DNA from: a virus
DNA: 64,000 bases
Virus record (IMG/VR): IMGVR_UViG_3300045988_132725
Reading direction: 5' to 3' (one strand)
Position numbers and translations under genes: made by a program. Below are positions 8,401 through 54,965 of the stretch, in pieces. The notes under the pieces were generated by a model that made no database searches, was not told the origin of the DNA, and was given only the letters and a program-made list of their open reading frames with translations. The number at the start of each line of letters is the position of its first letter. Positions within the stretch are counted from its first letter, which is position 1.

Positions 8401-8793
8401 GACCTTGTTTACCTTTTTCATTCCTTGCTCATGAATGGCTATCACCTTGGCGGTCTTTCCATCTGGGGTTGACACTACTGTTCCTATCTTAACGTCACCC
8501 ATCGTTATCCATCCTTCCGGCGTAAGTATCTTGGCTGAATAAGGTTGTGCCTTGCCTCCTCCAGCCGCTCCTCCTCCGAGAATCATCTGGGGGATGTTCC
8601 TATTACCACATGATGAGCATTCAGGAACATACTGTTTATTCCCATGATCGTCTGTTCCTATATATACGTTCTTTATTTCTCCACCGCATATATGACATTC
8701 TGGCTGTAACGCTTTCCATAGCTCGAATTGTTTTGGCGAAGGGGAGAAATTGATTTTTAAGTCCTTGGGAGGGACTAAAGTTTTGTATCCCAT
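5485..8793 (-). CDS. terL: Terminase large subunit precursor with two inteins (mature about 527 aa)
   Basis: Walker A GGGAAGGGK|...|SYIGSAW is interrupted. Walker B is LVFVDEASE. Nuclease motif EKYGH|...|CTDVADY is interrupted. An N-terminal CxxC...CxxC zinc ribbon is present. Confidence 0.9.
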   Translation of the reverse strand: MGYKTLVPPKDLKINFSPSPKQFELWKALQPECHICGGEIKNVYIGTDDHGNKQYVPECSSCGNRNIPQMILGGGAAGGGKAQPYSAKILTPEGWITMGDVKIGTVVSTPDGKTAKVIAIHEQGMKKVNKVITSDGCSTECCDDHLWKVYYKKRDRAWVRGGFDERIMDTATIRKRLRNGNLAFLPVVTEQEFGDKFDNYMTAYSWGYYIRNIMPDPNNFKRSNRTEIPQELVISSLEDRKNFLRGLLKEVIIRSTGKYEFMSRSEKFANQLQDILRSIGAIATVVKSKGKGRIIKYFVRFSFDPRINKMTKPTTTPAHRRYIRSVIELDEHKECRCITLDSDDQLYITDDFLVTHNSYIGSAWLVSSCMRFPNIRAVVARKTIKSLKESTFVTIKKVMKEWGLKEDENFCINNIEGTITFWNESVIMMKEMADLPADLDFSRFGSMEATLVFVDEASEISERAADVMFSRIRWKTSETFKTPKMFLSCNPAACWLRDRFVQDNDGNPVKCRDGEVFIRFSIFDNPDESFRQIYESSLNKIKDNATRERLLYGNWDFVEANEMALYKSFSGDKHLIQSLKENIYDPMKPLILGFDFNVFPHMTCEAVQIDWENKNVYFLEEFLGRPEEKLNNTPKFAQYVKDKLLESKHIGGVVLTGDPAGLARNTQTEDGVNNFTIIQSCMNNTILRPKQNILAKQPPQKNRVDWINELFDGLDGWNIYIDLRCRKLTEDLVYQIRNEDGTKNKQKVTDPKTKVRYEKYGHCFAAGTMITTKKGKIPIENVNVGDYVLTREGYKKVTFSGVTGKNVMVKDYSIGDTNITCTPDHPFYTIEDGFTEIDKITQKTFIVCEKAEKPSYMMDTNFIDTNKPNKSLTEDIIEGGSISMRKSQKHTFIDMFGKNIMEVSQRGSISTILMGIFPIMTYRTLNAKKDQLIYQIIKFINRKGLKKSLLKPFLKTAIRHQNGTNRKKEENGIENMLKKHYSEKKEQLYVKGVERSLLQDVRLKSNIVQEDVRTESTQEYYIKEKKKLFVRKSNERIIDKVYDITVEDLHEFFANGILVHNCTDVADYVLCTFLSKSWLKYQRGGQSGTVLTTSTIKPQFSY
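5611..6507 (-). mobile_element. Intein 2 of TerL (class 1; Cys1 ... HN / +1 Cys), 299 codons
   Basis: CFAAGTMITTKKGKIPIENVNVGDYVL (block A), TPDHPF (block B), VYDITVEDLHEFFANGILVHN|C (blocks F/G). Codon positions were checked against the nucleotides (TGT at 6505-6507, AAT at 5611-5613). Confidence 0.85.
5690..6253 (-). CDS. HNH homing endonuclease (187 aa) encoded inside intein 2 in a different reading frame
   Basis: LHRYVWEKYNGSIPKGFHIHHIDGNFSNNDISNLE...HLSDH is an HNH motif. C-terminal CEGCGKEF...YCSRRC is a zinc ribbon. The ORF has its own ATG and is offset by 2 nt from the terL frame. Confidence 0.85.
   Translation of the reverse strand: MREGRETIIYDGYKFHRYKQAKQESDRRYYRGWVDINEKITKTYLHRYVWEKYNGSIPKGFHIHHIDGNFSNNDISNLECKERSTHLSDHQIHKSERLKEIAIKTLLENSYKASEWHKSEEGRKWHREHAQKALFGEERTIICEGCGKEFTTRCKIKVKYCSRRCKNRINARILYQRKKETLCKEIK
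7723..8550 (-). mobile_element. Intein 1 of TerL in the Walker A P-loop, 276 codons, class-3-like (Ala1, W-C-T) with a degenerate LAGLIDADG-like centre
   Basis: GGGK|AQPYSAKILTPEGWITMGDV..., block B CDDHLW, block F ECRCITLDSDDQLYITDDFLVTHN|S. NFLRGLLKEVIIRSTGKYEF...ANQLQDILRSIG resembles a decayed dodecapeptide endonuclease. Confidence 0.75.
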
Positions 8794-8837
8794 TTGTATC
8801 GTGTTTTGGTTTTTATTAAGAATAGTCTATTAACGAC

Positions 8838-12038: not shown

Positions 12039-12119
12039 TCTTTTAAGTTTTGGTTTTATTAATATAAAAAGGGAGATAGCTGCTATGTTACCTCCCTTTA
12101 AAAAGAATAGAAATATATA

Positions 12120-13993: not shown

Positions 13994-16030
13994 TTAAATA
14001 ATTTCTAAAATTGAACCTTTGTAATCTTGTAATCCGTTTTGATTGGAGAAATTACTCCATTTTACCATACAACTCATAAGAAGGATGTGGTCCTTTGCGT
14101 TTATAAGTTGTGACTTCATTGTCTCATAGTTTTCTGGCCATACTATCAGCTCTATTGTCTCCGTGTTCTGTTGGAGCGTCAGTACACCGAAGTTCTTTTT
14201 CTTCTTTTCTTTATCCTCGAAACTCTTTTCCTTGAATTCTACTACCGTTGCGCAAATAGCCGCTTTCTTACCGTCCATATCGGGCTGGAAGCAACGTCCG
14301 ATATCCTTATAACTCGCTCCCCTTAGCTTTGTCTTGAACTCAGAGTTATCGAATACCCTTCTATAGTCAACACTACCTATACCACTGATAGAGATTTGTA
14401 ACATTGACCAGAAATAATGTTGCGATATCTTTTCTGGTGGAAAATCTGTCTCCGAGACCTCGAATCCTAGTATACCAGCCGCTTTCTCCAAGGCAGCGTA
14501 TCGTTCCAGCACCGATAAAATCCCCTCTACCTTGTCAAAGCAACCCGCTAGGATCAAGTTCTTGATTTGTCGTGAGTTTACCGGGCACCTCTCTTCTCCG
14601 GGTAGCTTCAATAGTTTTTTCCGGAAAATACGTTTGCAGAAATCCTCGATGGAAGAGTACGGACCGTTCTTCTCTCTCTCATTGACTATCAAGTTTACGC
14701 TTTCTGTCCCGACAAACTTGATCCTTGATAATGACCAATAGATCTCGTTTTTCTTGTAATCGGTCTCAAATTCCACCCCGGAAACGTTGATATCTGGATG
14801 AACGATCTTACAGGATGAAGCTTGCTCCATCTCGGCCATCAATGAGGAAATGTTCTCATCTTTGGCGTATTCCAGAGCTACAGTATAAAATGCTGTTGGG
14901 TAATTGGCTTTATACCATGCTCCTAGATAGGCTGTAAGAGCGTATGCTGTAGAATGCGATTTATTGAATAGATAGCTTCCTCCAGATTCTATCATGTGCC
15001 ATAAAGCCTCAATATCCTCTTTGGGGCAACCCTTATTTTTTGCTCCTTCGATAAACTTACCTTTCATGGCTAAAATCTTATCTACTTTTTTCTTGCTAAT
15101 AAATTTGACAAGATGTACACCTTCTGCTAATGAAAAACCTCCAATATCTTGAGCTATTTGACACAATTGCTCTTGATATACAAGTAAAGAGAATGTTTCT
15201 TTCATAATTTCGTAAGTTCCCCATAAATAAGCAGGTTCCTTTTCTCTGTTTTTATAGGCTACATAATTCTCGGTTGACTTTGATTCGATGGTTGCTGGAC
15301 GGAACAAAGCATTAGCTGCTATAAGATCATGAATACAGGTTGGCTTCATCTCCATCACGAACTTGGTCATTCCAGCCGATCCGAACTGGAAGATGTTCTG
15401 CGTAAAACCATTGGTGAATAACTTGTAAGCTTTCTCATCCTCCAGCTTGTTTGTGATAATATCCAGAAATGTCGTAGGATCACCATATTCCTTAACAACC
15501 AAATCTCGTGTCTTCTGAAACTTGGTTAACTCCTTGATACCAAGACAGTCATTTTTAAGAAGCCCGATGTCATCAATCGAATACCCATCGATCTCGGATA
15601 CCAGTATGTCATCGATCTTCTTGATCGGGAGATAATCGAAGCATTCCATCTTCTTGCCATCCTTTGTCTCTGGCGTGATGATGATAGCTGAGGCGTGAAT
15701 GGAAGAGGAGCGAGGTTGTCCCATCAATGTCCTGATATCCTCTATGACTTGCGGATAATTCATGATAAATTCCTTGACCCTCTTGTTCGTATAGGCTAGC
15801 TGGAACAACCCGGTGTAGTCCATGGAATCATCATCAATGATCTTGTTGATGTAATTCACCTCGTACACGGGTACGTTATGAATCCTCGCCACATCTTTCA
15901 ACACGGCTTTCAATTTCATTGTCGTGAAGGTTCCAGCGCTGAATACACGCTGGAGACCGTTCTTATTATATCTGCGTTCAAGGTATTCCTTCACTTCCTG
16001 CCTACGGTCGGACTGGTAATCGATGTCCAC
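13994..16030 (-). CDS. dnaE: DNA polymerase III alpha (DnaE-type, C-family) C-terminal half: catalytic Asp motif, fingers, thumb, OB region
   Basis: Starts at GTG with (M)DIDYQSDRRQEVKEYLERRY...SAGTFTTMKLKAVLKDVARI, matching PDIDIDF..RR.EVI.Y....YG......I.TFGT...K.A.RDV.R. Further motifs are LLKNDCLGIKELT and FNKSHS.AYA. Confidence 0.85.
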   Translation of the reverse strand: MDIDYQSDRRQEVKEYLERRYNKNGLQRVFSAGTFTTMKLKAVLKDVARIHNVPVYEVNYINKIIDDDSMDYTGLFQLAYTNKRVKEFIMNYPQVIEDIRTLMGQPRSSSIHASAIIITPETKDGKKMECFDYLPIKKIDDILVSEIDGYSIDDIGLLKNDCLGIKELTKFQKTRDLVVKEYGDPTTFLDIITNKLEDEKAYKLFTNGFTQNIFQFGSAGMTKFVMEMKPTCIHDLIAANALFRPATIESKSTENYVAYKNREKEPAYLWGTYEIMKETFSLLVYQEQLCQIAQDIGGFSLAEGVHLVKFISKKKVDKILAMKGKFIEGAKNKGCPKEDIEALWHMIESGGSYLFNKSHSTAYALTAYLGAWYKANYPTAFYTVALEYAKDENISSLMAEMEQASSCKIVHPDINVSGVEFETDYKKNEIYWSLSRIKFVGTESVNLIVNEREKNGPYSSIEDFCKRIFRKKLLKLPGEERCPVNSRQIKNLILAGCFDKVEGILSVLERYAALEKAAGILGFEVSETDFPPEKISQHYFWSMLQISISGIGSVDYRRVFDNSEFKTKLRGASYKDIGRCFQPDMDGKKAAICATVVEFKEKSFEDKEKKKKNFGVLTLQQNTETIELIVWPENYETMKSQLINAKDHILLMSCMVKWSNFSNQNGLQDYKGSILEII

Positions 16031-16161
16031 CGTCAGACATCGGGGAGTGAACCTGACTCCCCTTGCCGATAACCTCTGCCAATGTTACAATCGATAACTG
16101 ATCTTGCCGTGGATATTTTCTTAATTACTATATTATTAATTCTCATTTTAGCTGTAATTTA

Positions 16162-16407
16162 TTATGGTAAAACCTCTTCTAGATTAAACTTCCAAAATAC
16201 TGATCTGACCTTGTGTGCAGGAGATACATATGACGTATTGTTTGTTAGGTTATAGATAGTTATCTGGCTGGTTTTTTCGATCACTCCCATTTCTAACTCA
16301 AATCGAACTTTTGTTCCAACTTTTAGATTTCTATAAAACTTGGAAGAGGAACTGCATTTAATGTCTTTAATTCTATAAACCCCACTTGTTAATTTAATTG
16401 GTTTCAT
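16162..16407 (-). CDS. Hypothetical 81-aa protein inside the dnaE-splitting cassette
   Basis: ORF overlapping the helicase 3' end by 14 nt. Confidence 0.45.
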   Translation of the reverse strand: MKPIKLTSGVYRIKDIKCSSSSKFYRNLKVGTKVRFELEMGVIEKTSQITIYNLTNNTSYVSPAHKVRSVFWKFNLEEVLP

Positions 16408-17755
16408 TCTTTTCTGTTTTTGTTTGTTGTTCGTTTCTTTTTGTTCTCATGAATTTGACGATCTTCCTGTCACATCTGATCTGATCTTGACTGAACATGG
16501 AGATAAGGTGCATATTCTCAAGAGATCGACATCTGGATAAGGCCACATAAATCTGTCCGTCAGCGAATGATCTTCCAGCGTCAACGATCACCTTGTCAAA
16601 TGTCAATCCTTGTGACTTGTGGATCGTGATACCCCAAGCTAACCGTAATGGGATCTGGGTACATTTGCCTATGGACTCACGCTTGATCTTGCCTGAATCT
16701 GCGTCATGGGTAAATTTATTATTGTCCCATGTGTGTGGTTTAACCTCTATGCTGTGTCCATCCTCCAGTTTTACCACTATATCAAACTCCTTGGTGTCTG
16801 GATTGGGTTTTAGATATTCTATCGTACCAATCGTACCATTGCAATATCTACCTTCTGGATCATTAACTAAGAACATCACTTGTGCTCCTTCCTTCAATCT
16901 TAGGATCATATCGCAAGGGATGGAATTTTTTCCAAACTCTCCTTCTACGTTGCAGTTAAAGACATATTCCTTGGTTTTCAATTTTTCCAGTTCCTTTGAG
17001 TTGATCTTGTCTGCCTTTGAGTTATGCGAGCAAACCGTAATCATGTTCTCTTCCGACTTGAATCGTGGTTGGCATTTCTTCTTGAGGATATCGTAATTAT
17101 CCTTGGAGATAACTCCAGACCTTACCTCGTTCAAAATATTAATGAATACGGGATCTTTTTGCCGGTAGATTTTATCCAGTTCAATCATCTTGAATCCACT
17201 AAGCTTTAACGCCCAAGAATCAAAGAAATAGTATGATTGATATAGATCTTTCAGTATCTCTTCTTCCTCTTTGTTGATAATTGGGCTTAACTGGTAAAGA
17301 TCACCGAACATGACCACTTGCACGCCTCCGAACATCTTATTGTTGCAATGACGATGGACACATAAGATATCATTGATAGCGTCCAACAAATCTGCCCTAA
17401 CCATACTGATCTCATCAATAATCAAGGTATCCATATTTTTCAATACGTCGATCTTGTCTGGTCGTAATGCGTAGCTATCTAACCCCGGATAAACGTTCTT
17501 TCCTACGATATTGGGCCTAAACGGACCAAACGGGATACCGAACTGTGAATGTATGGTCGTTCCTCCCGCATTGATTGCGGCTATACCGGTAGGAGCTACC
17601 ACCGTGATATTCTTGTCACAATTCTCTTGTAAATAATGAAGCAACGTGGTTTTTCCTGTTCCTGCCTTGCCCGTGATAAATACATTCTCATTCGTGTTGC
17701 ATACCAAGTCGTATGCCTCTTTCATTTTCTGGTTATCGTCTAAATTTATATTCAT
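16394..17755 (-). CDS. Pif1/RecD-like SF1B helicase
   Basis: Walker A is GKAGTGKTT and Walker B is LIIDEISMV. Also GDLYQLSPI, TIHKSQGLTFDKVIVD and YVALSRCRSLENMHL. Confidence 0.85.
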   Translation of the reverse strand: MNINLDDNQKMKEAYDLVCNTNENVFITGKAGTGKTTLLHYLQENCDKNITVVAPTGIAAINAGGTTIHSQFGIPFGPFRPNIVGKNVYPGLDSYALRPDKIDVLKNMDTLIIDEISMVRADLLDAINDILCVHRHCNNKMFGGVQVVMFGDLYQLSPIINKEEEEILKDLYQSYYFFDSWALKLSGFKMIELDKIYRQKDPVFINILNEVRSGVISKDNYDILKKKCQPRFKSEENMITVCSHNSKADKINSKELEKLKTKEYVFNCNVEGEFGKNSIPCDMILRLKEGAQVMFLVNDPEGRYCNGTIGTIEYLKPNPDTKEFDIVVKLEDGHSIEVKPHTWDNNKFTHDADSGKIKRESIGKCTQIPLRLAWGITIHKSQGLTFDKVIVDAGRSFADGQIYVALSRCRSLENMHLISMFSQDQIRCDRKIVKFMRTKRNEQQTKTEKNETN

Positions 17756-19437
17756 AACTCGTTAATAGTCCATATTAAATCCCTGTTGTCAAATATTATA
17801 TCATCGTTCGTCATTAGCTCATCGGCGTAGACCTCTATCTCTTCATCTCCTCGCTTGACCAAGAATTTTGCGTCTCGATCAAACGAGTAAGTTTTTCCAT
17901 TCATTGATATTTCTACGTATTCTTTCGACTCTATCTTGCCTTGTATAACGGTCGTGTTGGCCTCGTATAAACCTGAGCGGTCTGGAAGCAAGAATCTCTC
18001 AAAGATCAAGTTATACTTCAATGGGTCAAGCTTGGTGATACCCATTAAATAGAGCAGGAGACACCCGCCTCCGGAACCACGGGAGATACCTGTCATGATC
18101 CCTTGTTCGTTGGCCCAGTTCACCGTATCATATTGTACGAGAAAATAATCGATATTATTGGTTGATTCAATGACATATTTCTCATATTCAACCCTTTTGC
18201 GATATTCCTCTTCCTTCCCTTTAGGAACGAGCTTTTTAAAACCTTCCTCTATGATCTGGTTGAACATGTTGTGCCTGTCTCCATATTTCTCTCGTTCCTC
18301 TGGGGTCATATCATATTGAGGCATAAAGTTTCTGGTGGTCTCGTAAGCCGCTTTCGCTCCTTCGGTTATTTTGATCGTATTGTTACACATCTCAGTGAAT
18401 ATTTCCCATTTATCCCATTCGTCACTGAATAGTTGGTCTATCACCTTATAGTGCTCATCCAGATCTTTGAAATATTGCTCATCACTTTGCATATGAGCGG
18501 CACCATCCGAGATCTTGTTCAATATGATCTTGTTCTTTGCGTCATCCTTGTCCAGATAGTAGTTGTCGCAAATAAGGACAGGAGGAACAAATGTCTCTTT
18601 ATCATAGAAGAACTTTAACGCCTCCAGATATGCCTTATCGAACCTGTCAGCCTTGAATTCGGTAAGGTCAACTTGATAATAGACCTTAGAGACCTTGTTT
18701 AAGGCTTTTATCAAGTTGATATTGTCGAACATCCAGTACACGGCCAATGTCCCCAATACGATCACGTTCCCCTTACAATATCTTTGTAGGTTGGAGAAAG
18801 AAAGGGTCTTGTTCTCGCTATCCACGTTGATCTCTTTCTGGATACGTAGGAGGTTGGACAACCCCTCGTTTGTTTGGCAATATACCTTTATAGGGATGAT
18901 GTCTTCCTTGTATCGCATGTCCAAGGTGTATCCGATCACAAAGCCAAGACCTTCCTTTTGGCATTCCTTCTGGAGTACCAACGTTCCAGCCATCGTATTC
19001 TTATCGCAGATACCGATAGCGTTTTGCCCCAGATACTTGGCTTTCCTAATCCAGTCTGAAATCTGGAAAGAACCATTCAATAGCTCGAATGGCGTGTGGA
19101 TACCTAGGTTGACAAATCCTGTGCTATGTATGGTCGGGAGCCTCTTACCTATGTATTTCAGTATATTCAACCTGAACTCTCCCCTCATGTCAAAGTAGTA
19201 CCAATTATCCCCGAACTGGAAGCATGTATAGAATACTTCTTGCTCTATCAATTCGGTCTTGGTTGACATGATATTAAATATGGTCTCTCCATTATTGTCT
19301 TTTCTGAAAATGGATTCAACCTCAGTTAAATCATTGATAAATAGCTTGCCGAAGCCTTCTATCTCGAAGACCTCATTGTCTATTTCACGGTAAGATATTT
19401 GGTTAGTCGCAAGCCATTCTTGAAGGCTTTCGGTCAT
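17752..19437 (-). CDS. dnaE: DNA polymerase III alpha (DnaE-type) N-terminal half: PHP domain and first palm segment, plus a ~70-aa unrelated tail
   Basis: VNLGIHTPFELLNGS (PHP), GISRGSGGGCLLLYLMGITKLDPLKYNLIFERFLLPDR (palm). It then diverges and stops. The stop overlaps the helicase ATG (ATGA). Confidence 0.85.
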   Translation of the reverse strand: MTESLQEWLATNQISYREIDNEVFEIEGFGKLFINDLTEVESIFRKDNNGETIFNIMSTKTELIEQEVFYTCFQFGDNWYYFDMRGEFRLNILKYIGKRLPTIHSTGFVNLGIHTPFELLNGSFQISDWIRKAKYLGQNAIGICDKNTMAGTLVLQKECQKEGLGFVIGYTLDMRYKEDIIPIKVYCQTNEGLSNLLRIQKEINVDSENKTLSFSNLQRYCKGNVIVLGTLAVYWMFDNINLIKALNKVSKVYYQVDLTEFKADRFDKAYLEALKFFYDKETFVPPVLICDNYYLDKDDAKNKIILNKISDGAAHMQSDEQYFKDLDEHYKVIDQLFSDEWDKWEIFTEMCNNTIKITEGAKAAYETTRNFMPQYDMTPEEREKYGDRHNMFNQIIEEGFKKLVPKGKEEEYRKRVEYEKYVIESTNNIDYFLVQYDTVNWANEQGIMTGISRGSGGGCLLLYLMGITKLDPLKYNLIFERFLLPDRSGLYEANTTVIQGKIESKEYVEISMNGKTYSFDRDAKFLVKRGDEEIEVYADELMTNDDIIFDNRDLIWTINEL

Positions 19438-33255: not shown

Positions 33256-34133
33256 TCTTGTAAATTATAGATTTTCCATTCTCTTTTGATTAGTTTTTTG
33301 ACATCGGTTTCAAATATCTTACAAGCGATCTCGTATAATTCTGGGATCATGTTCAGAACTCGATCGATGTAATCAATTTTGTTTTTGATCTCAGGTTTGA
33401 TGGCCTGTACTTTTTCACTATTGATTCTTCGATTAAGGCTCATATGGTATTTAAGCTCGAACTCTTTATAGAGCAATCGATATCTCTTTTGGAAATCAGT
33501 AGAGTTGTATCGAACAATTTGCGTGATCCTTTGGCGCTTTTCTGCCAATTCGATATCTTCAGTCAAACCCTCAATCACGTCTGATTTATGAGAGATAACT
33601 TCTTTCTGTTTTATATTCTCCGCTTGAAGAGCTTGTTTTTGTTTCTCTGACACAATAAGTGCTTCAAGCGCCTCTATGTAATTTTGAGGTAAGACAACAG
33701 CTGCTTTTTGCTTTTCTAACTCTAGCTCTTCCCATCGATCTATTATTTTTGCTCTTAGTTGGATATTATATCCACTAGCAAGAAGAAGACACGCTTTCTT
33801 ATTTAATTCATATTTAGGTCTTGTTTCTCCTTTTTTATCTATATATTCAGATATTTTGAAAATATATTCTGAAATCTTGTTTTGGGAAGTTGCAAAATTA
33901 TAAATAGCATCAATAGTTATATCGGATAGGTATTTATATTGTGTTCTATCAGATCTATGATAATCTTTCTTGATTTCATCAACGGGTACAGATCTGTACC
34001 CGTATGATTTGTTCAGATTATCAATTAGATTGCGTATATCTCGCATTACAATCTTATGTTCTTTGCCAGTTGTTTCCGCAATTTCAAGAGAACTCATCGT
34101 CTCTTTGATTGATAAATAATTCACATCATTCAT
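33249..34133 (-). CDS. Rha-family phage regulatory protein
   Basis: MSSLEIAETTGKEHKIVMRDIRNLI matches the Rha N-terminal motif (sS.eiAe..gk.H..VlrdIr.l). Confidence 0.7.
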   Translation of the reverse strand: MNDVNYLSIKETMSSLEIAETTGKEHKIVMRDIRNLIDNLNKSYGYRSVPVDEIKKDYHRSDRTQYKYLSDITIDAIYNFATSQNKISEYIFKISEYIDKKGETRPKYELNKKACLLLASGYNIQLRAKIIDRWEELELEKQKAAVVLPQNYIEALEALIVSEKQKQALQAENIKQKEVISHKSDVIEGLTEDIELAEKRQRITQIVRYNSTDFQKRYRLLYKEFELKYHMSLNRRINSEKVQAIKPEIKNKIDYIDRVLNMIPELYEIACKIFETDVKKLIKREWKIYNLQEC

Positions 34134-34159
34134 TTGTTTTTTGATTTTTGAAAATAGTT

Positions 34160-34665
34160 AGTTGACACCGTGCATCTAATCTCATGCCGGTACAAACTTT
34201 ATAAAATATCTATGGTGGGGTCGAAAGATGGTAGGGTGCATCTTATCGTCAGTGTATAGGAGGGAATGAAACCGGGAATGCGTGAGTCAAATAGGATAAA
34301 ACGACAACGGAAGTATCTCCGTCAAAATTATTCGTTCCCGGTATTTTTTAAGCTCTAAGTCATAATCGTTCTCTTTTTTAGTTAACTTAATTTTGTAAAA
34401 AAAACATCCTTCCTCGAAAGAAAGTCTTGCAAAAGTATACGGAAGTTTTTTAATATACAAGCTTTATTTGAAAAATATTTCAATCATCAAAAAATCATTA
34501 TCTTAGATTTTAAAATGTCACTCCTCCTTCCATCCCTCTTCGGAGAGGGATTATAGGGAGAGGTTTTTATATTCTTTTATTTACTTTACTTTACTTTGTG
34601 TACTTCGGACGGAATTAATCGAGTTTCCTGAGGTAATAATCGAGTTATTGACGGAATTAATTATT
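34160..34665. promoter_or_regulatory. 583-nt intergenic control region with direct repeats and hairpins (candidate ori, operator or small RNA region)
   Basis: GTGCATCT(A/T)ATC occurs twice (~34169 and ~34236). GACGGAATTAAT occurs twice and AATCGAGTT twice (34608-34661). Also (CTTTA)3, a UUCG-capped hairpin TCCCTCTTCGGAGAGGGA (~34532-34549), and ACCGGGAA...TTCCCGGT followed by T6 (~34271-34347). Confidence 0.4.
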
Positions 34666-34680
34666 TGACCCTAGAAGACG

Positions 34681-34710
34681 AAAAAAGGAGCACCTATAAA
34701 AAGATGCTCC
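34681..34710 (-). terminator. Rho-independent terminator after the 140-aa gene
   Basis: GGAGCA / TGCTCC stem followed by T6 on the minus strand, 7 nt after the stop. Confidence 0.55.
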
Positions 34711-34716
34711 TTGTTG

Positions 34717-35139
34717 TCATGAAAAAAATGTATCTGTCTTTTTTCTTTGTTCGATATAGCGTTTCATTTGGTTGCTCTGAAGACGTTCGTAATATTCTTT
34801 CTTTACTGGTGTCATTCGTTTTGGTTTGGAAGTACATAGCTTGTTCGTTTTGTACTCGTCCATATACCGATAGAATTTATTTTTTTGGAAGACTGGGTTA
34901 GGGGAAGCGAGCGTGATAGCTTCTATGATTTTCATCGTAGGTTCCGGAAAAACCCCTTTTGGGGTGGATGCCATGATCAGCTCATATTCGATCGGAGCCT
35001 CGTATTTCAAGAAGAAACCCAATTTAGTCTCATCAAAGTGCCTTTTTTTTCTGGTTCCCTTTGGCCTTCCTTGTTTTCCCGTGGGTTTCCCTTTCGTTGT
35101 TATTCTGATTCCGTTCTTCAGTAATGGTTTTGTTGCCAT
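34717..35139 (-). CDS. Basic protein with an AT-hook-like motif (140 aa)
   Basis: KPTGKQGRPKGTRKKR contains a GRP core flanked by basic residues. Confidence 0.45.
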   Translation of the reverse strand: MATKPLLKNGIRITTKGKPTGKQGRPKGTRKKRHFDETKLGFFLKYEAPIEYELIMASTPKGVFPEPTMKIIEAITLASPNPVFQKNKFYRYMDEYKTNKLCTSKPKRMTPVKKEYYERLQSNQMKRYIEQRKKTDTFFS

Positions 35140-39508: not shown

Positions 39509-40162
39509 TTATATCTCCTCTCTCGCTTTAATGGCTATCTGTCCAGTTTCGGAGTCTATGTTAACTTCCTCGACAAACATCTTATCTCGGTTAAACTCCT
39601 CCTTGATCTTGATTCCTAAGCTGGAATCGTTAATATTACCGTTAAGGTATTCTTGGAGCGCTATCCCTGTAGTAGGATATTGATAGAGGTTCCCGGCGTA
39701 GCTTTTCAGTAGATAGGACTCGTTTTGCTCAAGCGACTCGCATAAGGATAGATCGTAAGAATACATGTCCGACACATACACTTGATTATCTATTAGATTG
39801 AAACAATAGCAGAATCGATCCGATATGACAGGGAGCGTGGATGCGTATACCTCTTTGTCATTTAAGTCCTTAACCGTATAATACTCGCTGTTGTCGATAG
39901 GGTTAAGGATCGGGTAAGCGTTATTGGACCCATCTATAGCCCAAAATGACATCTTTATCTTTTTATATTTCAAGCAAGCCGGGATATATACGCCAACACC
40001 TTCCTCCAAGTCATTATTCTGGAAGTTACTCTTGAATTGACACTTTCCATACAAATAATAATCATCCTCTTTCTCCCAAGAAAAATCAACCATATACCGA
40101 GGAGTCCTTTCCGATAGGGATAGGTCTCCGGTATCAAAATCTACCGCAATATCTGTTCTCAT
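39509..40162 (-). CDS. Hypothetical tail/baseplate protein (217 aa)
   Basis: ORF in the tail module. Confidence 0.4.
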   Translation of the reverse strand: MRTDIAVDFDTGDLSLSERTPRYMVDFSWEKEDDYYLYGKCQFKSNFQNNDLEEGVGVYIPACLKYKKIKMSFWAIDGSNNAYPILNPIDNSEYYTVKDLNDKEVYASTLPVISDRFCYCFNLIDNQVYVSDMYSYDLSLCESLEQNESYLLKSYAGNLYQYPTTGIALQEYLNGNINDSSLGIKIKEEFNRDKMFVEEVNIDSETGQIAIKAREEI

Positions 40163-40216
40163 ATTCTTTATCGTTGTTTATTAAGATTAGGTTATATATT
40201 GTTGTTTTGTTGATAC

Positions 40217-40252
40217 AAAAAAGGGGAGAAAAGCTTGTTCGCTAATCTCCCC
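40217..40252 (-). terminator. Rho-independent terminator ~220 nt downstream of the 127-aa gene
   Basis: GGGGAGA / TCTCCCC 7-bp stem followed by T6 on the minus strand. Confidence 0.55.
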
Positions 40253-40474
40253 ATGCCATAGTGGTCTTGGTTTTTTGATTAATCTACCCTTGCCTCCCCT
40301 GTTAAAGATGAATAAGTTAGTGGTGTTCGTTCACGCATATTACAGAACTCGTTTCGGTAGAACTGAGTATGTGAGACAACACTATCGTTCATTGCCTCGT
40401 AGATAGAAGTTGTAATTTACCTTAATAGTGAATGGGAAAAGAAGGTTGGATTTACACCAGTCGGTCTTTTAAAG

Positions 40475-40858
40475 TTAAGGTTGTGGTTTTTGGAGTGGTG
40501 CTTTAGGGATCGCCTTGCTGTTATCCACCAATTGGGCGCATTCATTGAACACACGTTCGACAAATTCCCATACGTCATCCGTGAACTCTTTCTCTGAGGC
40601 TCCCTCACAAGCCTCGTTAAGGTATTTGGCTAGGTCCTTGGTGATCTCCAACTCGATCGGGTTCTCTTGGTCTATCTGAGGATTCCAAGAGATAGATCCC
40701 GTTTCCTCGTCTTGCTTGATCTGGTACTTATCATTATCTTCCTCCGATAACTGTACTTGTTTCACCAGTTCTTTTTTCAAGTTATACGTCTTATAGTCCA
40801 CCGGTTTTTGTGGTAAAAGGTTCAAGAGATAGAACCTGTCTTTAACGAATAGTTTCAT
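40475..40858 (-). CDS. Hypothetical acidic 127-aa protein
   Basis: ORF immediately downstream of the ORF-free region. Confidence 0.45.
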   Translation of the reverse strand: MKLFVKDRFYLLNLLPQKPVDYKTYNLKKELVKQVQLSEEDNDKYQIKQDEETGSISWNPQIDQENPIELEITKDLAKYLNEACEGASEKEFTDDVWEFVERVFNECAQLVDNSKAIPKAPLQKPQP

Positions 40859-40889
40859 TTCGGTATTAATTTATTGATTATCAGTATTT

Positions 40890-41575
40890 TGTTTTCTTTT
40901 CTCCCTTACGTTAAAACGCAGCATCCCCTTTATACCCTAGAGAAGAATGTCTCATTCAACCTTTAAGCACCTTAAGTACCAAAAAGACGTACTATCCCCC
41001 GGCATGGCTCGCATACCCCCAATAGTACCTTGAATGAATCCTCAAACTTCTCTCGACCCCATACAACACTTCCGTACCCCAAGCCTTGAACGTAATTAAT
41101 GTTTTCTTCCTGATTACTAACGACTCCTTCTACCAACCGACTCTACTGCTTCTTCCTCGCCATATCAAAGCTGGTAATTATCATAATCGCTTTCTGTCAG
41201 TTATAATCTACATCCGCTCCTTTGTCGCTCATTTACCTCATGGTGCTTAGATTGCGCAGAACGCTTTATTCTTCTCTAGGTTCCTGTTGTCAGGGTAGAC
41301 ATTGCAGGATTTTTTACTTCCCATGTGCAAATGGTTATATGGATGCCACTTTCCTTTGTTCCCACCTTACGGCGTGGACTGAGGGATATAGATCGCCTAT
41401 CTATTATTCGTAGATTCAGCGATCGCACAGGACTCAGTGTTACGGGTAGCGTCTCATTACTCATTCTACCCGCCTCCTATCGGTTTGTTTACCGCCAGTT
41501 TTCCGACCATTTTTAGGTTTGCCACGATGTCAATTCCGAGGCTCTCACCTCTCAACCCCTCCGCTGAAGGATTAT
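40890..41575 (-). ncRNA. Candidate large structured non-coding RNA (class unknown) or very long structured leader
   Basis: About 700 nt with no ORF over 89 codons in any frame, in an otherwise tightly packed genome. The transcribed strand is G-rich. There are several nested complementary segments, two of which are G-U wobble on the minus strand but A-C mismatches on the plus strand. Confidence 0.4.
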
Positions 41576-41785
41576 TGTTTATATAAGAATAGGTTTTTTT
41601 TTGGAAAAGGTTTGAAAAAGAGAATGATTTTTTCAGATAAATGTTTAATGTGTTGATTATTAGTGATTTTTTGCTGCATATTAAGCATGGAATACCAAAT
41701 TTGGTAGATAAGCTTTGGAATATAAAAATATTCAAATAGGACTAAGAAGACTTTTTACTTCCTCGTTCTAAGATGAAATCCTCTC

Positions 41786-41810
41786 AAAAAAGCAATATGT
41801 CTAATTTGCT
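41786..41810 (-). terminator. Weak terminator after the giant fibre gene
   Basis: AGCAA / TTGCT 5-bp stem followed by T6 on the minus strand. Confidence 0.3.
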
Positions 41811-41831
41811 AGAAAATGTCCTTATGATTAT

Positions 41832-44800
41832 TTATAAATCGGTATCAATAAATCCTGTATTTCCTAATGAGTAAGTTTGTCCGTTAAAATCACGGATGTA
41901 AATTCCTCCGGCGGTAATAATTGTTTTTCTTATTATTTTTTGACTTGGGTTTGAATTCTCATATGCGATACCTTTGAGAACTATATATGGGGAATATTTT
42001 TCAAATATGTAACTTAAATCATTGTTACTTATATTGTTAATATTCATATAGTCTCTTGGCATTTTTATTTCCCATGTTGATTCAAATGTGTATTTACTGC
42101 TGTCATATATTGCTTCATTTTTGTAATATCCAGAAACCATTCCTGAATCAAGCCTATTATAATGGTTAGGGTCAAATTGTGATTCGATCTTTTGTCCTTC
42201 GTACATCGTCAATCCATTGCTCTGCGATAACTCCCATTTATTCGTAGATTTTATGGTTCCAGCACTATTGATAGATAAAATCCCATTATTTATGTTATTG
42301 GAGGATATTGCCCATCCACCGATCTTACCGCTTGTCGCTGTTACCTCTCCAGAGAAAGATCCACTGGCAGCTTCCAGCTTGCCTTTAAAATGTGCGTTAC
42401 CATCCATATCTATATAGAATTGCGGTGATCTTATGGCTGCTTGACTCCCATTACTATATAGCGTTATTCCAGAAGTAGAGAAACCTTCAGATGTTCTCTC
42501 GGTACCTGTATAGATACTGTTTCCGGTTATATTCCATTTACCGATCGTTCCTGTTACGGCGTTTATCTTTGATGTATCGACTGTTGCGTTCACCGTTACA
42601 TCTTTTCCGAATGTCACCTTACCTTCCTTATCCCATTTTATGTTTCCTTTCGCTAAGCATCCTGAGCCATCGTTACCAAGTCTCCAAAAGGTGTTTGTGT
42701 CTCCTGTAGAAGGATAAGTCTCTCCATCGACTATGGTCATTTTAGCGTGTGCGATAGTTCCATTTGAATCGATATAAATAACGGAATCAACCACTGAGCC
42801 TGTTACGCATTCATGTTTAAGACCTTTGTTTGTAATTTTCCAGCCTCCAATTAAACCACTGGTCGCTTCAATATTACCTTTAAAATAAGCGTTCCCATTA
42901 GTATCTATCCGAAAGTTCTTTGCTCTTATTGCTGCTAAGTTGGCTCCATCGCTATAGAATGTTATTCCAGACGTAGAAAATCCGTCAGATGTTTGTTTAG
43001 TTCCGGTGTAAAGATAATTCTCTTCTATCTTCCAGTTCGCCAACGTTCCTTTCTTTGTCGTGAGTTCAAGAGTGTTTATTATATCGGCTGTTATAAACTT
43101 GGCTTGCAAATCTTCTGTCTGTATACTGTCCGCTTTTAACGCTGCCGTTATGACTTGTTTAGCTTCAAGCGTTCCTGTATAGATGCCGGTTGAGGTTATC
43201 TTGGTCAATCGAGACTGGAGGTCTGCTTGTGACAATCTCCATTCCATAACGGTTTCTGAGTTTGTCAATATCATCGAGTTGTTTGTTATATAAAAAGTAC
43301 CCGCTGTCCCGAAACCAATGTAGATATACGAGGAGTCCATGCCTGTGAAGTTCTCTATCTCTACATTCGTCCATGTGTTTTTGGTAAGTGGTTTGGTGAC
43401 AATATTGTTATTGCTTGCCCCAAACTTGATGTACATGTTTGTATTTACATTTGAAAATATCCTGAACGCTAAACTAGCGGGATCGCAAATCTTATTGGTT
43501 GAGAATCTGACGCAATTTTGTGATACTGTTGAGTCTGTAGCTGAAGTAGAAGTGATACTTAACCATGTATTGACATATAAAGACAGGGTTATCCCATAAG
43601 TTGTTATTCCGGGAAACGTGTAAATGTTGGTTGTTTCGTCTTTTGTATACTCTTTGAAATCCGTATGTTTTATCTGGTTATCCATGATATCCTTGTATCC
43701 ATTATAGTCCATGTTTCCCCAACTTAGCACCACGTCCTCCCCGAACTCAATCTTTCCGGTGGATGAGTTGTATTTGATATATTGTTTGTCTGCGCCTAAT
43801 TGAGCGTTTCCCACGGAGTCAAGAAACCAAGTGTTCTTGCCTTTATTGAATCCATAGATACCATTGATTGTTCGTGTCACGTATCCTCCGGAAGGATTGG
43901 CTACCTTTAATGGAAGATTTCCTAACGCCAACCCTGTCAATGTTCCATCTGAGTTCTTTGTTCCAGCGAATATCTTAGGGGTTATAACTTGATTTCCATT
44001 GATCTCCGTCTTGTTGGTATTCCAATCATTGACCCAATCTAATAAGTTTGCATCTTTTCCGGGTTGGCCTATCTCTCCATCTTTTCCGAAATGACCTATT
44101 ACATGCGGGACGGAGGTCTTGCTGGTATTGTCCGTATATTTGATTACCTCATAGCCCCATAGATATGGTTTATCTTTGCTTATAACTTGTGAGTTGACGT
44201 TCGTGCTCCATCCAGAGGTACTGGTAGTGACTCCGGATGACGCTGTTGTTGCCAAATAATAGTTGGTTATGGAAGATATACCGTTACCAGTTGCTCCGGT
44301 ATCCCCATATACGCCTATGATTTGTACGCTCTCTTTTTTTGTGCCGTCCGAAAAGTTAATCCTCTCCTTGTTCCATAGGTATTTGTTCGTTGGTGTCATC
44401 TCTGGTATATTCCCATCCCATCCGGAAGGTGGGGTAGTTTTACTGGATGATACGGCGTACAGTTCTTCTATGGATAGAATCCCGATCCCGTCTTCTCCCC
44501 GTATGCCGTCAACCCCATTGTATACCTTATATACGCTAATCAGGTCGTAGTATTCTTTATTGTTGACGATAGCCGTATATTTGATAGATAGGTTGTTCTT
44601 CTGGCTCCAGATACTAGATGTATCGCTCAACAATAGAGAGGTAGAGGCGCTTCCTGCGCTAATCCAAAATCCATTGGGAGATAGGTATTCCCATTTCCTG
44701 CTCGTAGGAACGATATTTATCTCCTCGGCCTCTAAGGCTGTTATGTTGCTATCTACCGTACCATCCTTATCATAATAGAATACGTTTCTACCAGTGATTC

Positions 44801-54182: not shown

Positions 54183-54305
54183 GTTATAGGCTTTGGTTAT
54201 TGTTTGCTTAATAAAGAATAGCTTGAAGCGTAAAGACTTGATTAAAAAAGAAAACCCCCACCGACATCACGTCGATAGGGGCCTAGAGAGGAATATATAA
54301 AGTAG

Positions 54306-54494: not shown

Positions 54495-54853
54495 GCGACC
54501 TTGGCTTGGCGAGAGCCAATGATATTAACCAGTTTTGCGGACAAGCCATATAAGAACAATGAATCATCGTCCACTAGTTCCTTATCTCCTTGGATAAACG
54601 TGTCACGTGCCAATGATCGGACGGCTGCGATCTCATCCTTCTTCTGTAATTGTGCGAACTTACTGAACGCAACGAAATCCGGTTCTCTGAAATAAGCGAT
54701 ATACACTTCCTTGTCATCGTACTCGTCACCAAATACTACGATAGGATAGACTCTTTTGTTTTTCTTGGGGTCTTGTTTTCTGATTTCCTCTAAGGTTTTC
54801 TTGATAGTTTCTTCTTGTGCTAATGTAAGCTCTTTGCTTTCTTCCATTTCCAT
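54470..54853 (-). CDS. Tail assembly chaperone (gpG-like)
   Basis: Acidic 127-aa protein immediately upstream of the tape measure, with a frameshift site near its end. Confidence 0.65.
   Translation of the reverse strand: MEMEESKELTLAQEETIKKTLEEIRKQDPKKNKRVYPIVVFGDEYDDKEVYIAYFREPDFVAFSKFAQLQKKDEIAAVRSLARDTFIQGDKELVDDDSLFLYGLSAKLVNIIGSRQAKVANFSIAGK
54488..54494 (-). promoter_or_regulatory. Programmed -1 ribosomal frameshift slippery heptamer A AAT TTC
   Basis: GCA AAT TTC is in the zero frame (X XXY YYZ phase is correct), 6 codons before the chaperone stop. Confidence 0.6.
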
Positions 54854-54900
54854 AATATATACTTTGTTTGGTTGTTTATGAAAGAATAGAGGGGATTTTA

Positions 54901-54965
54901 GAAAAAAGTTTGATTAAAATATATCTCTTGACTAGTCATGCTGTATTCCTAATCAAGAGATATAT
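54901..54965 (-). terminator. Terminator of the AT-rich moron
   Basis: Perfect 13-bp stem ATATATCTCTTGA / TCAAGAGATATAT (54919-54931 / 54953-54965) followed by a T-rich tract on the minus strand. It begins 5 nt after the stop at 54971. Confidence 0.65.

Follow-up and report, generated by a model that had tools for sequence, protein, structure and literature searches.

To our knowledge only a few classes of large, intricately folded RNA have been described from bacteria and phages, and those carried by phages, GOLLD and ROOL, have no assigned function. Their hosts are mainly Firmicutes and others. Both RNAs (RF01998 and RF03087 in Rfam) are encoded by phages or prophages and are hundreds of nucleotides long, with many helices and pseudoknots, conserved unpaired blocks and a variable internal region. 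The Rfam model of GOLLD describes the conserved 3′ half of that RNA, which often lies beside tRNA genes or encloses them. GOLLD expression goes up during phage lysis, and in both families tertiary base pairs that had been derived from covariation turned out to be intermolecular (PMC12286853). Other described systems resemble the locus reported here in one respect or another. ORF-less group I and group II introns, the latter of about 600-700 nt, are multi-domain RNAs with long-range tertiary pairings, and riboswitch-type leaders sit in 5′ leaders and use one strand in two exclusive helices. The tandem leader of Clostridioides difficile, which joins a c-di-GMP-II riboswitch to a group I ribozyme, is similar in overall size to the RNA described below. 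The c4 RNAs of phages P1 and P7 and the CI RNA of P4, finally, are only about 70-80 nt long, come from immunity regions and have flanking targets; P1/P7 and P4/phiR73 differ in their antisense and target sequences. In P4, processing of the leader releases the CI RNA, whose pairing with seqA and seqC, on either side of it, terminates transcription (PMC4825925).

The window analysed here, the whole 64,000-nt stretch of IMG/VR record IMGVR_UViG_3300045988_132725, belongs to a temperate phage of Bacteroidales, a host that sets it apart from GOLLD and ROOL, and carries tape measure, terminase and integrase genes. We conclude, at a probability of about 97%, that a stretch of this window encodes a genuine and novel structured RNA on the minus strand, of about 660 nt (40917-41576, the ends being placed by conservation). 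It lies in the interval 40859-41831, between the stop codon of a 1555-aa fibre gene (41832) and the ATG of a 127-aa gene (40858), where the listing of ORFs on both strands offers no credible candidate: every ORF there is of 89 aa or less, stop codons number 13-25 per frame, and across lineages we found no ORF conserved in position or frame and no protein-like translation. In composition the element has a GC content of 0.445-0.465 against 0.275-0.335 in the AT-rich flank (41500-41900), a plus-strand GC skew that falls to -0.46, and 197 G to 124 C over 747 nt of the minus strand. For the minus strand the folding energy is -199 kcal/mol and z is -2.75, as against a z of -1.4 for the plus strand. 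An earlier note, made from the letters alone, had remarked on about 970 nt with only short ORFs and a GC-richer inner part whose transcribed strand is G-rich, and these observations hold; it had also named frameshifted remnants of a protein gene as the mark of a decayed pseudogene, and no such remnant appeared. The weak terminator that it placed at 41786-41810 does have a 5-bp AGCAA/UUGCU stem and a U6 run, but it falls below the criteria of the terminator scanner and is not kept in relatives. A diversity-generating (DGR) template repeat was also considered and rejected, as no repeat is shared with the 3′ end of the fibre gene and no reverse transcriptase lies nearby.

Homologues of the RNA occur in a small group of human-gut prophages of Parabacteroides type. 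Searches with nhmmer and BLAST recovered them in L001-L003, L005, L009, L010, L026, L029, L035, L111, L112, L114-L116, L121 and L122, which make up about nine lineages with identities from 99% down to about 60%, and one homologue lies within the genome of Parabacteroides sp. AF17-3, assembly GCA_003635445.1, on contig QTMM01000007.1 at about 132-142 kb, where the adjoining gene encodes 113 aa. A further 75 more distant relatives are without it, and a covariance-model search, which met the RNA once in the window, gave no hit in 36 loci that lack it. Exact-pattern scans never found the RNA in another genomic context or phage group. Two such scans of IMG/VR returned the near-identical lineage only, a core-motif scan of IMG/VR added nothing beyond the contig of L035, and a scan of GTDB genomes gave chance matches only (L016, L017); L015 was likewise rejected, as a chance match in a small ssDNA virus. 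DNA similarity searches of GenBank phages, in near and distant modes, matched neither the element nor the surrounding 20 kb.

The scan of Rfam that the earlier note had proposed was run with Rfam 15 at the gathering threshold over the 64-kb window, at E<=10 over 40500-42200, and on six further lineages. No family was matched in any of the seven lineages, including GOLLD, ROOL, OLE, HEARO, the introns, riboswitches and C4, and the sole hits were to unrelated small RNAs at chance level (about 15-25 bits, E 0.2-7). The window likewise holds no tRNA or tmRNA gene. A resemblance to RNase P (GGAAAGU / ACAGAA / GGUAAAC) was rejected; it is not conserved in L009, no P4 pairing exists, and Rfam gives no match. 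Literature searches found no prior description of the RNA, and its sequence strings are absent from the first 200 of the 408 supplement files of PMC8040213. The family is previously uncatalogued, with members of about 610-660 nt and a distant variant of about 1 kb.

The case for an RNA is carried by covariation, the test in homologues to which the earlier note had pointed. In an alignment of 11 sequences, which represent roughly 7 independent lineages, 95.1% of the cells in 106 nested pairs are paired, as against 38-42% with slid partners, and the covariation score is 0.512 as against 0.075-0.121. Compensatory changes are found in 58 of these pairs, or in 65 when the pseudoknots are counted. 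Since pairing and covariation stand so far above those of slid partners, and none of 500 shuffles attained the observed values, chance is excluded, and the earlier reading of a large structured non-coding RNA is well borne out. Its covarying helices number at least 15; three helices are long-range, two pseudoknots are present, and many unpaired blocks are invariant. Its strand follows from G-U pairs present in all 11 sequences (alignment columns 227/267, 237/258 and 329/645) or in 10 of the 11 (182/213 and 326/647): on the plus strand they would be A-C, which places the RNA on the minus strand, as the earlier note had argued on the same grounds from two helices.

Read from 5′ to 3′ on the minus strand, the RNA begins with two hairpins, AAUCCUUC-AGCG-GAGGGGUU and GAGGU-GAGAG-CCUC (41537-41574), which form a peripheral, lineage-specific extension found in lineages A, B and L114/L115 and missing from L009, L112 and L111. 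The helices H2 and H3 follow (41442-41494), H2 being a CGG/CCG stem that encloses the invariant loop UAAACAAA, and H3 a stem of GCGGGUAG/CUACCCGU with the conserved loop AGUAAUGAGAC, 98.8% paired and with seven of its eight pairs changed on both sides. The most conserved domain comes next (41363-41438); here H4, a long bent hairpin (ACUGAG / UGU / GAUCGCU / AUCUA, loop CGAAUAA), is succeeded by H5 (CAC/GUG), and the 21 pairs of the domain are 99-100% paired, nine of them compensatory. The covariance model R1 scores 161 bits at this domain and has no other copy in the window. Beyond it lie the 5′ strands of the long-range helices H6 (GGCAUCCAUAUAAC) and H7 (CAUUUGCACAUGG) at 41321-41347, assigned by covariation to partners at 41067-41055 and 41243-41230, respectively (25 pairs, about 98% paired, 11 compensatory). 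The stems of the hairpin H8 (41282-41309) covary as well, and its loop CCCU (41295-41292) pairs with AGGG (40929-40926) to form PK2, a loop-tail pseudoknot whose strands are swapped between lineages: CCCU/AGGG in most lineages is GGGU/ACCC in L116 and GGGGCU/AGCCCC in L035.

Segment A (CCUAGAGAAGAAU, 41268-41280) is the 5′ strand of the other pseudoknot, PK1, in which it pairs with 40948-40936 over 13 bp (10 compensatory, 95.1% paired). Within 41110-41243, H7 is completed by its 3′ strand, and two conserved junctions, AUUAUAACUGACAGAA and UAGUAAUCAGGAAGAAAACAUUAAUU, flank the arm H10-H12. Lineages differ in both the sequence and the length of this arm, and its pairs are compensatory in four of five cases in H11 and in all ten in H12. 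The 3′ strand of H6 (GUUGUAUGGGGUC) then leads directly into segment B (GAGAGAAG, 41054-41047), where the core of A is repeated, strand and segment together occupying 41047-41067. A variable 3′ domain (40958-41046), which is enclosed by the pairing of B with C′ when that is formed, includes a GC-rich hairpin (41028-40989) and differs greatly in length and sequence between lineages, with an AT-rich expansion in L116. The putative switch region (40926-40957) consists of the hairpin H15 (GAAUG-AGA-CAUUC), segment C′ (AUUCUUCUCUAGG, 40948-40936), a conserved GUAUAA and the 3′ strand of PK2, AGGG. An A-rich linker and the native translation-start region (…UGAUAAUCAAUAAAUUAAUACCGAA-AUG) make up 40859-40916 ahead of the 127-aa gene, and a …AUAAAUUAA… tract also stands ahead of the ATG in some RNA-less relatives. 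Every helix that had been read from the single sequence finds support in this architecture: 41442-41449/41466-41473 is H3, 41378-41383/41433-41438 with 41391-41396/41419-41424 is H4, the hairpin at 41360-41378 is H5, 40939-40945/41047-41053 is H13, and the hairpin at 40945-40957 is H15, while L010 and L114 retain, in altered form, the nested hairpin at 40989-41028 that belongs to the variable 3′ domain.

Within the fold, pairing and covariation link three segments. The purine segments A and B share an identical core, and a single pyrimidine strand, C′, complements both; the 5-9-nt core of A recurs in B in every one of the 11 aligned sequences, and all three segments change together. The cores, lineage by lineage, are AGAGAAG, AAAGAAG, AGGAAGG (in A; AGGAAAG in B), AGGAAAGA, GACAGAAG and AGGAAAGG. 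With A, C′ can form the 13-bp PK1, which PK2 reinforces, and with B it can form 5-8 bp, accompanied by the local hairpin H15; the five aligned pairs of B:C′, helix H13, are 100% paired, three of them compensatory. Both A:C′ and B:C′ thus covary, with duplex energies of -15 to -25 kcal/mol for the former and -7 to -12 kcal/mol for the latter. Because H15 and H13 share nucleotides with PK1, A:C′ with PK2 and B:C′ with H15 can be read as two mutually exclusive folds. C′ is the only complement of A and B inside the RNA in most lineages; L009, L112 and L111 have a second CCUUCCU in the variable arm, and the flanking DNA holds no extra C′-like site, as a target in trans, that is consistent across loci. 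A purine-motif triple helix of A, B and C′ was rejected because B matches A in the same 5′-3′ direction and the core of L116 contains a C.

A late-gene upstream motif, CTATTCTTnnATAAAC, marks the 5′ edge of the RNA. The upstream motif CAAACCTTTT-N-CTATTCTTATATAAAC (41577-41614, minus strand) is a candidate promoter of late type that would serve both the RNA and the operon downstream; it is conserved in most RNA lineages and weaker or partial in L116 and L035. The composite motif recurs 36 nt upstream of the gene that starts at 54853, and CTATTCTT has eight copies on the coding strand as against one on the opposite strand, four of them 32-72 nt upstream of gene starts (terminase at 8793, 12038, tape measure at 54182, and 54853). 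In the RNA-less relatives L045, L076, L087 and L036 the motif stands 6-27 nt ahead of the ATG of the homologue of the 127-aa gene. A similarity of about 90 nt between 41672-41595 and 40893-40805 was considered as a target-site duplication and rejected, being marginal in the window (1 of 300 shuffles, a 26-nt core) and absent in L009, and is now read as shared leader and upstream-motif sequence.

The 127-aa gene (40475-40858, minus strand) lies outside the RNA and is always linked to it, as the first gene of a tail/baseplate operon whose proteins are of 127, 217, 308, 295, 181 and 654 aa. All the RNA homologues lie between an upstream gene of tail-fibre type and a conserved gene for about 112-127 aa, of which 73 of the 76 related loci have a homologue, whether they carry the RNA or not; synteny is conserved, and the adjacency of RNA and gene persists in all lineages, even where the upstream gene has been replaced (L114/L115). 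Since CTATTCTTnnATAAAC stands directly ahead of the same gene in some RNA-less relatives, the RNA occupies the 5′ leader of the tail/baseplate operon. No terminator or second copy of the motif was recognised between it and the ATG at 40858, and from these sequence features we infer that it is transcribed from the promoter motif of late-gene type as the first ~660 nt of the operon transcript. Among the alternatives raised in the earlier note, a giant structured leader for the downstream gene is hence the best anatomical fit, with the motif upstream and no terminator between.

What the RNA does is a question on which we hold graded views. We tentatively favour, at somewhat short of even odds, the reading of a cis-acting switch, in which the RNA would fold in two states and so govern the transcript that carries it. 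C′, the last segment to emerge, would pair locally with B first; conversion to the much more stable fold of A:C′ and PK2 would be slow, or would be promoted when a ligand or protein recognises the compact core, and would alter the fate of the transcript (its processing, stability or read-through), so timing or gating expression of the tail genes downstream. As in a cis-regulatory leader, the RNA sits between an inferred promoter and the first gene, on the same strand and with no intervening terminator, and it holds mutually exclusive helices with a common strand. Unlike riboswitches, it matches no aptamer or ribozyme model, its conserved core is several times the size of any known aptamer, and it has no recognised expression platform: the terminator scan and the alignment gave no conserved terminator or antiterminator and no pairing that hides the start region. 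A hairpin with a U-run at 41028-40980 was examined as an internal terminator and rejected, as it is not conserved in L114 and L009. Several observations count against a switch. The distance from C′ to the ATG is about 80 poorly conserved nt, 73 related phages run the same operon without the RNA, and its constant location may merely reflect vertical descent within a narrow clade. As a cis-regulator, the RNA would also, with its roughly 660 nt and its two pseudoknots, far exceed in size any riboswitch or leader known to us.

The main rival to a cis-acting switch, which by analogy we think possible rather than probable, is a stand-alone ornate phage RNA of the kind of GOLLD and ROOL, made abundantly in late infection from an existing late promoter, cut from the operon transcript and assembled into an RNA particle, possibly a homo-oligomer, in which some of the covarying pairings (A:C′, PK2 and B:C′) would be contacts between molecules. 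The RNA fits the ornate kind in its size and in how many helices it has, as well as in its pseudoknots and its invariant unpaired blocks, and the variable internal region adds to the likeness. The RNA is borne by a phage and apparently tied to late genes, its place behind a late-gene-type motif recalling the lysis-induced GOLLD; relatives manage without it, as they would without an accessory element, and the failure to find an expression platform counts in favour of this reading. Tertiary contacts of ROOL and GOLLD first seen by covariation did prove intermolecular (PMC12286853). Set against this, the 3′ end of the RNA shows no terminator or obvious processing site, and the exact-pattern scans found no other genomic context or phage group for it. 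No tRNA genes are its neighbours, although a location in phages is shared with GOLLD, and no covariance model matched in the seven lineages. A fixed operon-leader position and an internal two-state pairing have not been described for either family. With one C′ per molecule, moreover, oligomerisation alone leaves it unexplained why A and B both track C′. The GOLLD and ROOL precedents of the earlier note therefore serve as analogies and fail as family assignments, for want of an Rfam match and of nearby tRNAs.

A self-processing ribozyme or intron-like element in the 5′ leader appears unlikely to us. C′ would be a guide that brings two identical substrate sites, A and B, into register, either to be cleaved and ligated or for an excision that restores a short leader as in the RNA-less relatives. 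One guide with two identical targets fits this, as do an insertion point that falls precisely at the boundary of upstream motif and start region and a complex pseudoknotted core typical of large ribozymes. For a leader element this large, an allosteric group I ribozyme that sits in a 5′ leader offers a precedent. The RNA also lies, like ORF-less introns, within a terminator-less transcript. Unlike them, it interrupts no coding sequence: the upstream gene ends at a stop codon of its own and is wholly replaced in relatives, there is no homology between flanking exons, and we found neither joinable exons nor an intron-encoded reverse transcriptase, the element holding no ORF. No group I, group II or small-ribozyme model matched at E up to 10 in the seven lineages; Intron_gpII and group-II-D1D4 were not hit, and neither a GUGYG 5′ end, a domain V-like or domain VI hairpin (an AGC-bulge-GNRA hairpin included) nor a G-binding P7 was seen. 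The only GUGAG is missing from L009, L112 and L111, the helix order H6 > H7 > H8 ... PK1/PK2 differs from that of the group I P3/P7 pseudoknot, and cuts at A and B, which lie amid the surroundings of conserved helices, would dismantle the fold. The ORF-less intron suggested earlier finds no support. Less probable again, and drawn by analogy with the P4 CI RNA or P1/P7 c4, is an RNA-RNA specificity device in which C′, on a processed fragment, would act in trans by pairing with A and B on transcripts of its own phage or of a related one that comes in, whose tail operon it would block, lineage-specific A/B/C′ sequences being specificity groups. The core does vary between lineages, and the layout of one segment complementary to two target copies within the same untranslated phage leader has its precedent in P4 CI RNA with seqA and seqC (PMC4825925). 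Yet the order differs, with both targets upstream of C′; the elements lie within a 660-nt fold whose other helices vary equally; the fold heads a late structural operon and not an immunity region; and neither an Rfam C4 match nor a target in trans elsewhere in the loci was found. That there is no RNA here at all, the stretch being what is left of a decayed gene or else an element that works as DNA, such as an origin, a packaging site or a cruciform, could draw on a recombination-prone spot beside the mosaic fibre gene, where homology to relatives begins abruptly at about 41621-41633. This reading is effectively refuted by compensatory changes in 58-65 pairs and by the G-U pairs that would be A-C on the other strand, and neither a conserved reading frame or protein-like translation nor origin-typical repeats speak for it.

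In any case the RNA adds a new and well-supported class, borne by Bacteroidales prophages that are abundant in the human gut and distinguished from the known ones by its fixed place in an operon leader, by the comparison of close relatives with and without it, and by a three-way covarying pairing that can be tested by mutation; the homologue in the cultured isolate Parabacteroides sp. AF17-3 makes such experiments feasible. If it stands alone, it is a new candidate for RNA-only assemblies. If it is a switch with control over expression of the tail genes, we know of no cis-acting RNA regulator in bacteria or phages that comes near it in size. It is conceivable, though we would not bet on it, that it represents a new class of giant two-state phage RNA, pseudoknotted and with a decoy strand built in, which works as a sensor, timer or self-processing ribozyme at the head of the tail-gene operon, or that its lineage-specific A/B/C′ code lets a resident prophage recognise incoming relatives and shut their tail operon; any of these would be without a described counterpart among the RNA devices of phages.

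The stretch lies among genes that are all on the minus strand, between the stop codon (41832) of a 1555-aa tail-fibre gene upstream and the ATG (40858) of a 127-aa gene downstream. The earlier note had described it as ORF-free, and indeed no ORF between these two codons exceeds 89 aa on either strand, with 13-25 stop codons per frame. Its description of a GC-rich interior with a C-biased plus strand is also accurate: GC content is 0.445-0.465 across the inner ~700 nt versus 0.275-0.335 in the AT-rich spacer adjoining the fibre gene, and plus-strand GC skew in the element falls as low as -0.46, so that the transcribed minus strand is purine- and G-rich. The minus strand folds more stably than shuffled sequence does (z = -2.75), the plus strand less clearly so (z = -1.4).

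No catalogued RNA accounts for the element. At gathering scores, Rfam 15 gives zero matches in the entire 64-kb window, and at E up to 10 only chance-level matches in 40500-42200; six other lineages of the element likewise give only chance-level matches, and the GOLLD and ROOL models, named as precedents in the earlier note, match neither the window nor these lineages. The window has no tRNA or tmRNA genes, and the GenBank phages searched contain nothing similar. The element is an RNA absent from the Rfam catalogue.

The window represents a tailed temperate phage encoding a tape measure and tail proteins, together with an integrase, an intein-bearing terminase, DnaE and ribonucleotide reductase. 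The terminase large subunit (5485-8793, minus strand; 1102 aa) contains Hint and intein-splicing domains and therefore hosts an intein; ribonucleotide reductase is likewise intein-bearing in the related locus L010. The DnaE (DNA polymerase III alpha) gene is split (13994-19437, minus strand): a 561-aa part (17752-19437) stops at Pfam DNA_pol3_alpha position 99, and the domain is taken up again at position 104 by a 678-aa part (13994-16030) that starts with GTG. The two are separated by a 364-nt gap and the gene for a PIF1-like helicase (16394-17755). Either a split gene or a mobile insertion could explain this arrangement; Rfam 15 gives no intron match there. Another stretch, 34133-34717, runs 584 nt without an ORF of at least 90 aa between the tail module and Bro/pRha-type genes, has no Rfam 15 match, and is probably a regulatory boundary.

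Homologues were gathered through neighbour-protein searches, contigs with diverged neighbours, a profile search of related loci and a metagenome pattern scan. The 127-aa protein led to five IMG/VR contigs carrying the element at ~98-99% identity; in these, the upstream neighbour is an unrelated fibre gene, and homology starts abruptly near 41621-41633. Distant copies, L010 (82%) and L009 (65-70%), lie on contigs where the 127-aa and 308-aa neighbours are encoded in diverged form, a route that also yielded L111, L112, L114/L115, L116 and L121/L122; one metagenome pattern scan yielded L018, L024-L026 and L028-L031, and L035 was the sole scorer when the element's profile was run against 80 related IMG/VR loci. 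L112 comes from a Parabacteroides sp. AF17-3 genome, and the source names of the neighbour's homologues (Parabacteroides, Dysgonomonas, Bacteroides, Prevotella) point to Bacteroidales hosts. L118/L120 have a gene-free gap of 1104 nt at the equivalent place. This gap escapes a sequence profile of the element; a covariance model built on the domain with the strongest conservation gives a hit there (18 bits; E 0.0006 when the locus is searched alone), in the expected position and on the expected strand, with recognisable H3/H4 helices and junction motifs, and we take this gap to be a distant, larger variant of ~1.1 kb. That variant (L120 2387-3489, L118 1289-2391) ends in a long AT-only, microsatellite-like tract before the downstream gene, and L116 has a comparable AT-rich expansion within its 3' domain. 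Searches for the element in other genomic contexts used exact patterns only.

Covariation, drawn from ~7 independent lineages, shows that the structure is real. From an alignment of 11 sequences (A6), RNAalifold predicts 106 nested pairs. Compensatory changes on both sides occur in 58 of them, and many pairs take three to five base-pair types. Because alignment and structure come from the same sequences, slid-partner and shuffle controls address circularity: standard pairs fill 95.1% of cells versus 38-42% with 3' partners slid by 1-3 columns, the covariation score is 0.512 versus 0.075-0.121, and none of 500 shuffles did as well as the real alignment in paired fraction, in score or in how many pairs covary. 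The homologue covariation proposed as a check in the earlier note is thus present, and all the helices read there map onto supported ones. Its assignment to the minus strand from G-U wobbles also holds, since the 11 sequences, without exception or nearly so, have G-U at several pairs that would be A-C on the plus strand, which likewise disfavours a DNA cruciform. The lineages share no conserved reading frame, contrary to the decayed gene that the same note had weighed, and a pseudogene or DNA element is effectively excluded.

The predicted architecture, on the minus strand throughout, begins with a conserved upstream motif (41614-41577) and two lineage-specific 5' hairpins (41574-41537). A possible closing helix (41526-41515 with 40928-40917) is partly supported when the alignment is read by eye. 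Next come H2 and H3 (41494-41442), the most conserved domain H4 and H5 (41438-41363), the long-range helix H6 (41347-41334 with 41067-41055), H7 (41333-41321 with 41243-41230) with H8 inside it (41309-41282), a variable arm (41200-41110) and a variable 3' domain (41046-40958). Between the helices are invariant unpaired blocks such as GGUAAACAA, AGUAAUGAGAC, CGAAUAA, AUUAUAACUGACAGAA, UAGUAAUCAGGAAGAAAACAUUAAUU, ACGGAAGUGUU and GUAUAAAGGG.

There are two predicted pseudoknots. PK1, which a scan of all column pairs revealed, is a 13-bp helix between purine segment A (41280-41268, CCUAGAGAAGAAU) and pyrimidine segment C' (40948-40936, AUUCUUCUCUAGG) that crosses H6 and H7, with compensatory change in 10 of its 13 pairs and 95% of cells paired. 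Adjoining it, PK2 joins the H8 loop CCCU (41295-41292) to AGGG (40929-40926), with strands swapped to GGGU/ACCC in L116 and GGGGCU/AGCCCC in L035. In every lineage the core of A recurs in segment B (41054-41047, GAGAGAAG), directly 3' of H6, and core and C' change together: the core is AGAGAAG in the window's near-identical group, AAAGAAG in L010, AGGAAAGA in L114/L115, GACAGAAG in L116 and AGGAAAGG in L035, while L009, L112 and L111 have AGGAAGG in A and AGGAAAG in B (common AGGAA). C' is the sole complement within the RNA in most lineages; L009, L112 and L111 have a second CCUUCCU in the variable arm, and no extra copy in flanking DNA is consistent across loci. B pairs with C' as nested helix H13 (100% paired, three of five pairs compensatory), accompanied by hairpin H15, which occupies the 5' part of C', so A:C' and B:C' with H15 are mutually exclusive. 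The A:C' duplex has an energy of -15 to -25 kcal/mol, the B:C' duplex one of -7 to -12. Since selection has kept both pairings, the RNA is predicted to have two alternative folds. A triple helix of A, B and C' was rejected, as A and B match when both are read in the same direction.

The family of the 127-aa gene was found in 73 of 76 related loci, and in 75 RNA-less relatives genes are mostly tightly packed with no gap before it, which makes the RNA an accessory insertion in one sub-clade. At its 5' edge stands CTATTCTTATATAAAC, a sequence that recurs ahead of other late genes. The gene that starts at 54853 has a composite match 36 nt upstream, and weaker copies precede the tape-measure gene, the gene starting at 12038 and the terminase gene, the last directly after a terminator-like hairpin. 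The form CTATTCTT(nnATAAAC) (minus strand; 8810-8825, 12103-12110, 54206-54221, 54872-54913) lies 32-72 nt upstream of late-gene starts, and CTATTCTT has eight copies on the coding strand versus one on the other. Bacteroidetes promoters have the consensus TTTG/TAnnTTTG, which this motif does not resemble; it may be a phage-specific late promoter. In several RNA-less relatives the homologue of the 127-aa gene has the motif 6-27 nt upstream of its ATG, and between the RNA and ATG 40858 there is no second motif and no recognisable terminator. We infer that the motif is a putative late-type promoter and that the RNA, inserted between this promoter and the first gene, forms the first ~660 nt of the transcript of the tail/baseplate operon. 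The linkage persists where the upstream gene has been replaced: in L114/L115 (492-2296) a ClpP/NfeD-type protease gene and a 279-aa gene, and no giant fibre gene, precede the RNA, so the module 5' of it was exchanged with the RNA-operon block intact. A 26-nt near-repeat has one copy (AAAATCACTAATAATCAACACATTAA, 41645-41672) ahead of the RNA's motif and the other (AAAATACTGATAATCAATAAATTAA, 40866-40893) immediately before the start codon of the 127-aa gene; present in this phage only, at a level reached by 1 of 300 shuffles, it may be an insertion leftover or chance. The junction between the 127-aa and 217-aa genes (40162-40475) is a second variable spot, with a 313-nt gap in the window, a 193-aa ORF in L010 (10363-10944), an NlpE/META lipoprotein gene in a Dysgonomonas termitidis prophage, and 0.6-3.4 kb without forward-strand ORFs in several relatives; besides the window and L010, the spot was noted in L065, L077, L078, L094, L097, L108 and L123/L124 (2141-3512).

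The element is, then, a large, previously uncatalogued RNA that has pseudoknots and two predicted folds excluding each other, and it sits in an operon leader. We tentatively favour (probability about 0.4) a cis-acting two-state switch that would gate or time the fate of its own transcript, because the RNA sits in the leader, no recognisable terminator separates it from the gene, its linkage to that gene is fixed and its pairings have the logic of a switch. Of the alternatives in the earlier note, the giant structured leader fits the anatomy best. Against a switch, an expression platform was looked for and not found, a regulator of such size is without known precedent, and related phages manage without the RNA. 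The main rival, a stand-alone ornate RNA like GOLLD or ROOL that would be released from the transcript by processing, is a serious possibility at below even odds: covariation-detected 'tertiary' pairs in those RNAs turned out to be intermolecular (PMC12286853). The element resembles such RNAs in how it works or looks, but it fails their membership test, a covariance-model match, and their tRNA neighbourhood is missing around it.

A self-processing ribozyme seems unlikely, and still less probable is an RNA-RNA specificity device like P4 CI, a single RNA that pairs with two copies of its target in the leader (PMC4825925); the element shares the 2:1 complementary layout of the P4/P1 antisense systems but differs in size, order and location. 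Among the large ornate phage RNAs of unknown function, a kind already known, we count the element as a new class, and the switch may make it more than an ornate phage RNA.
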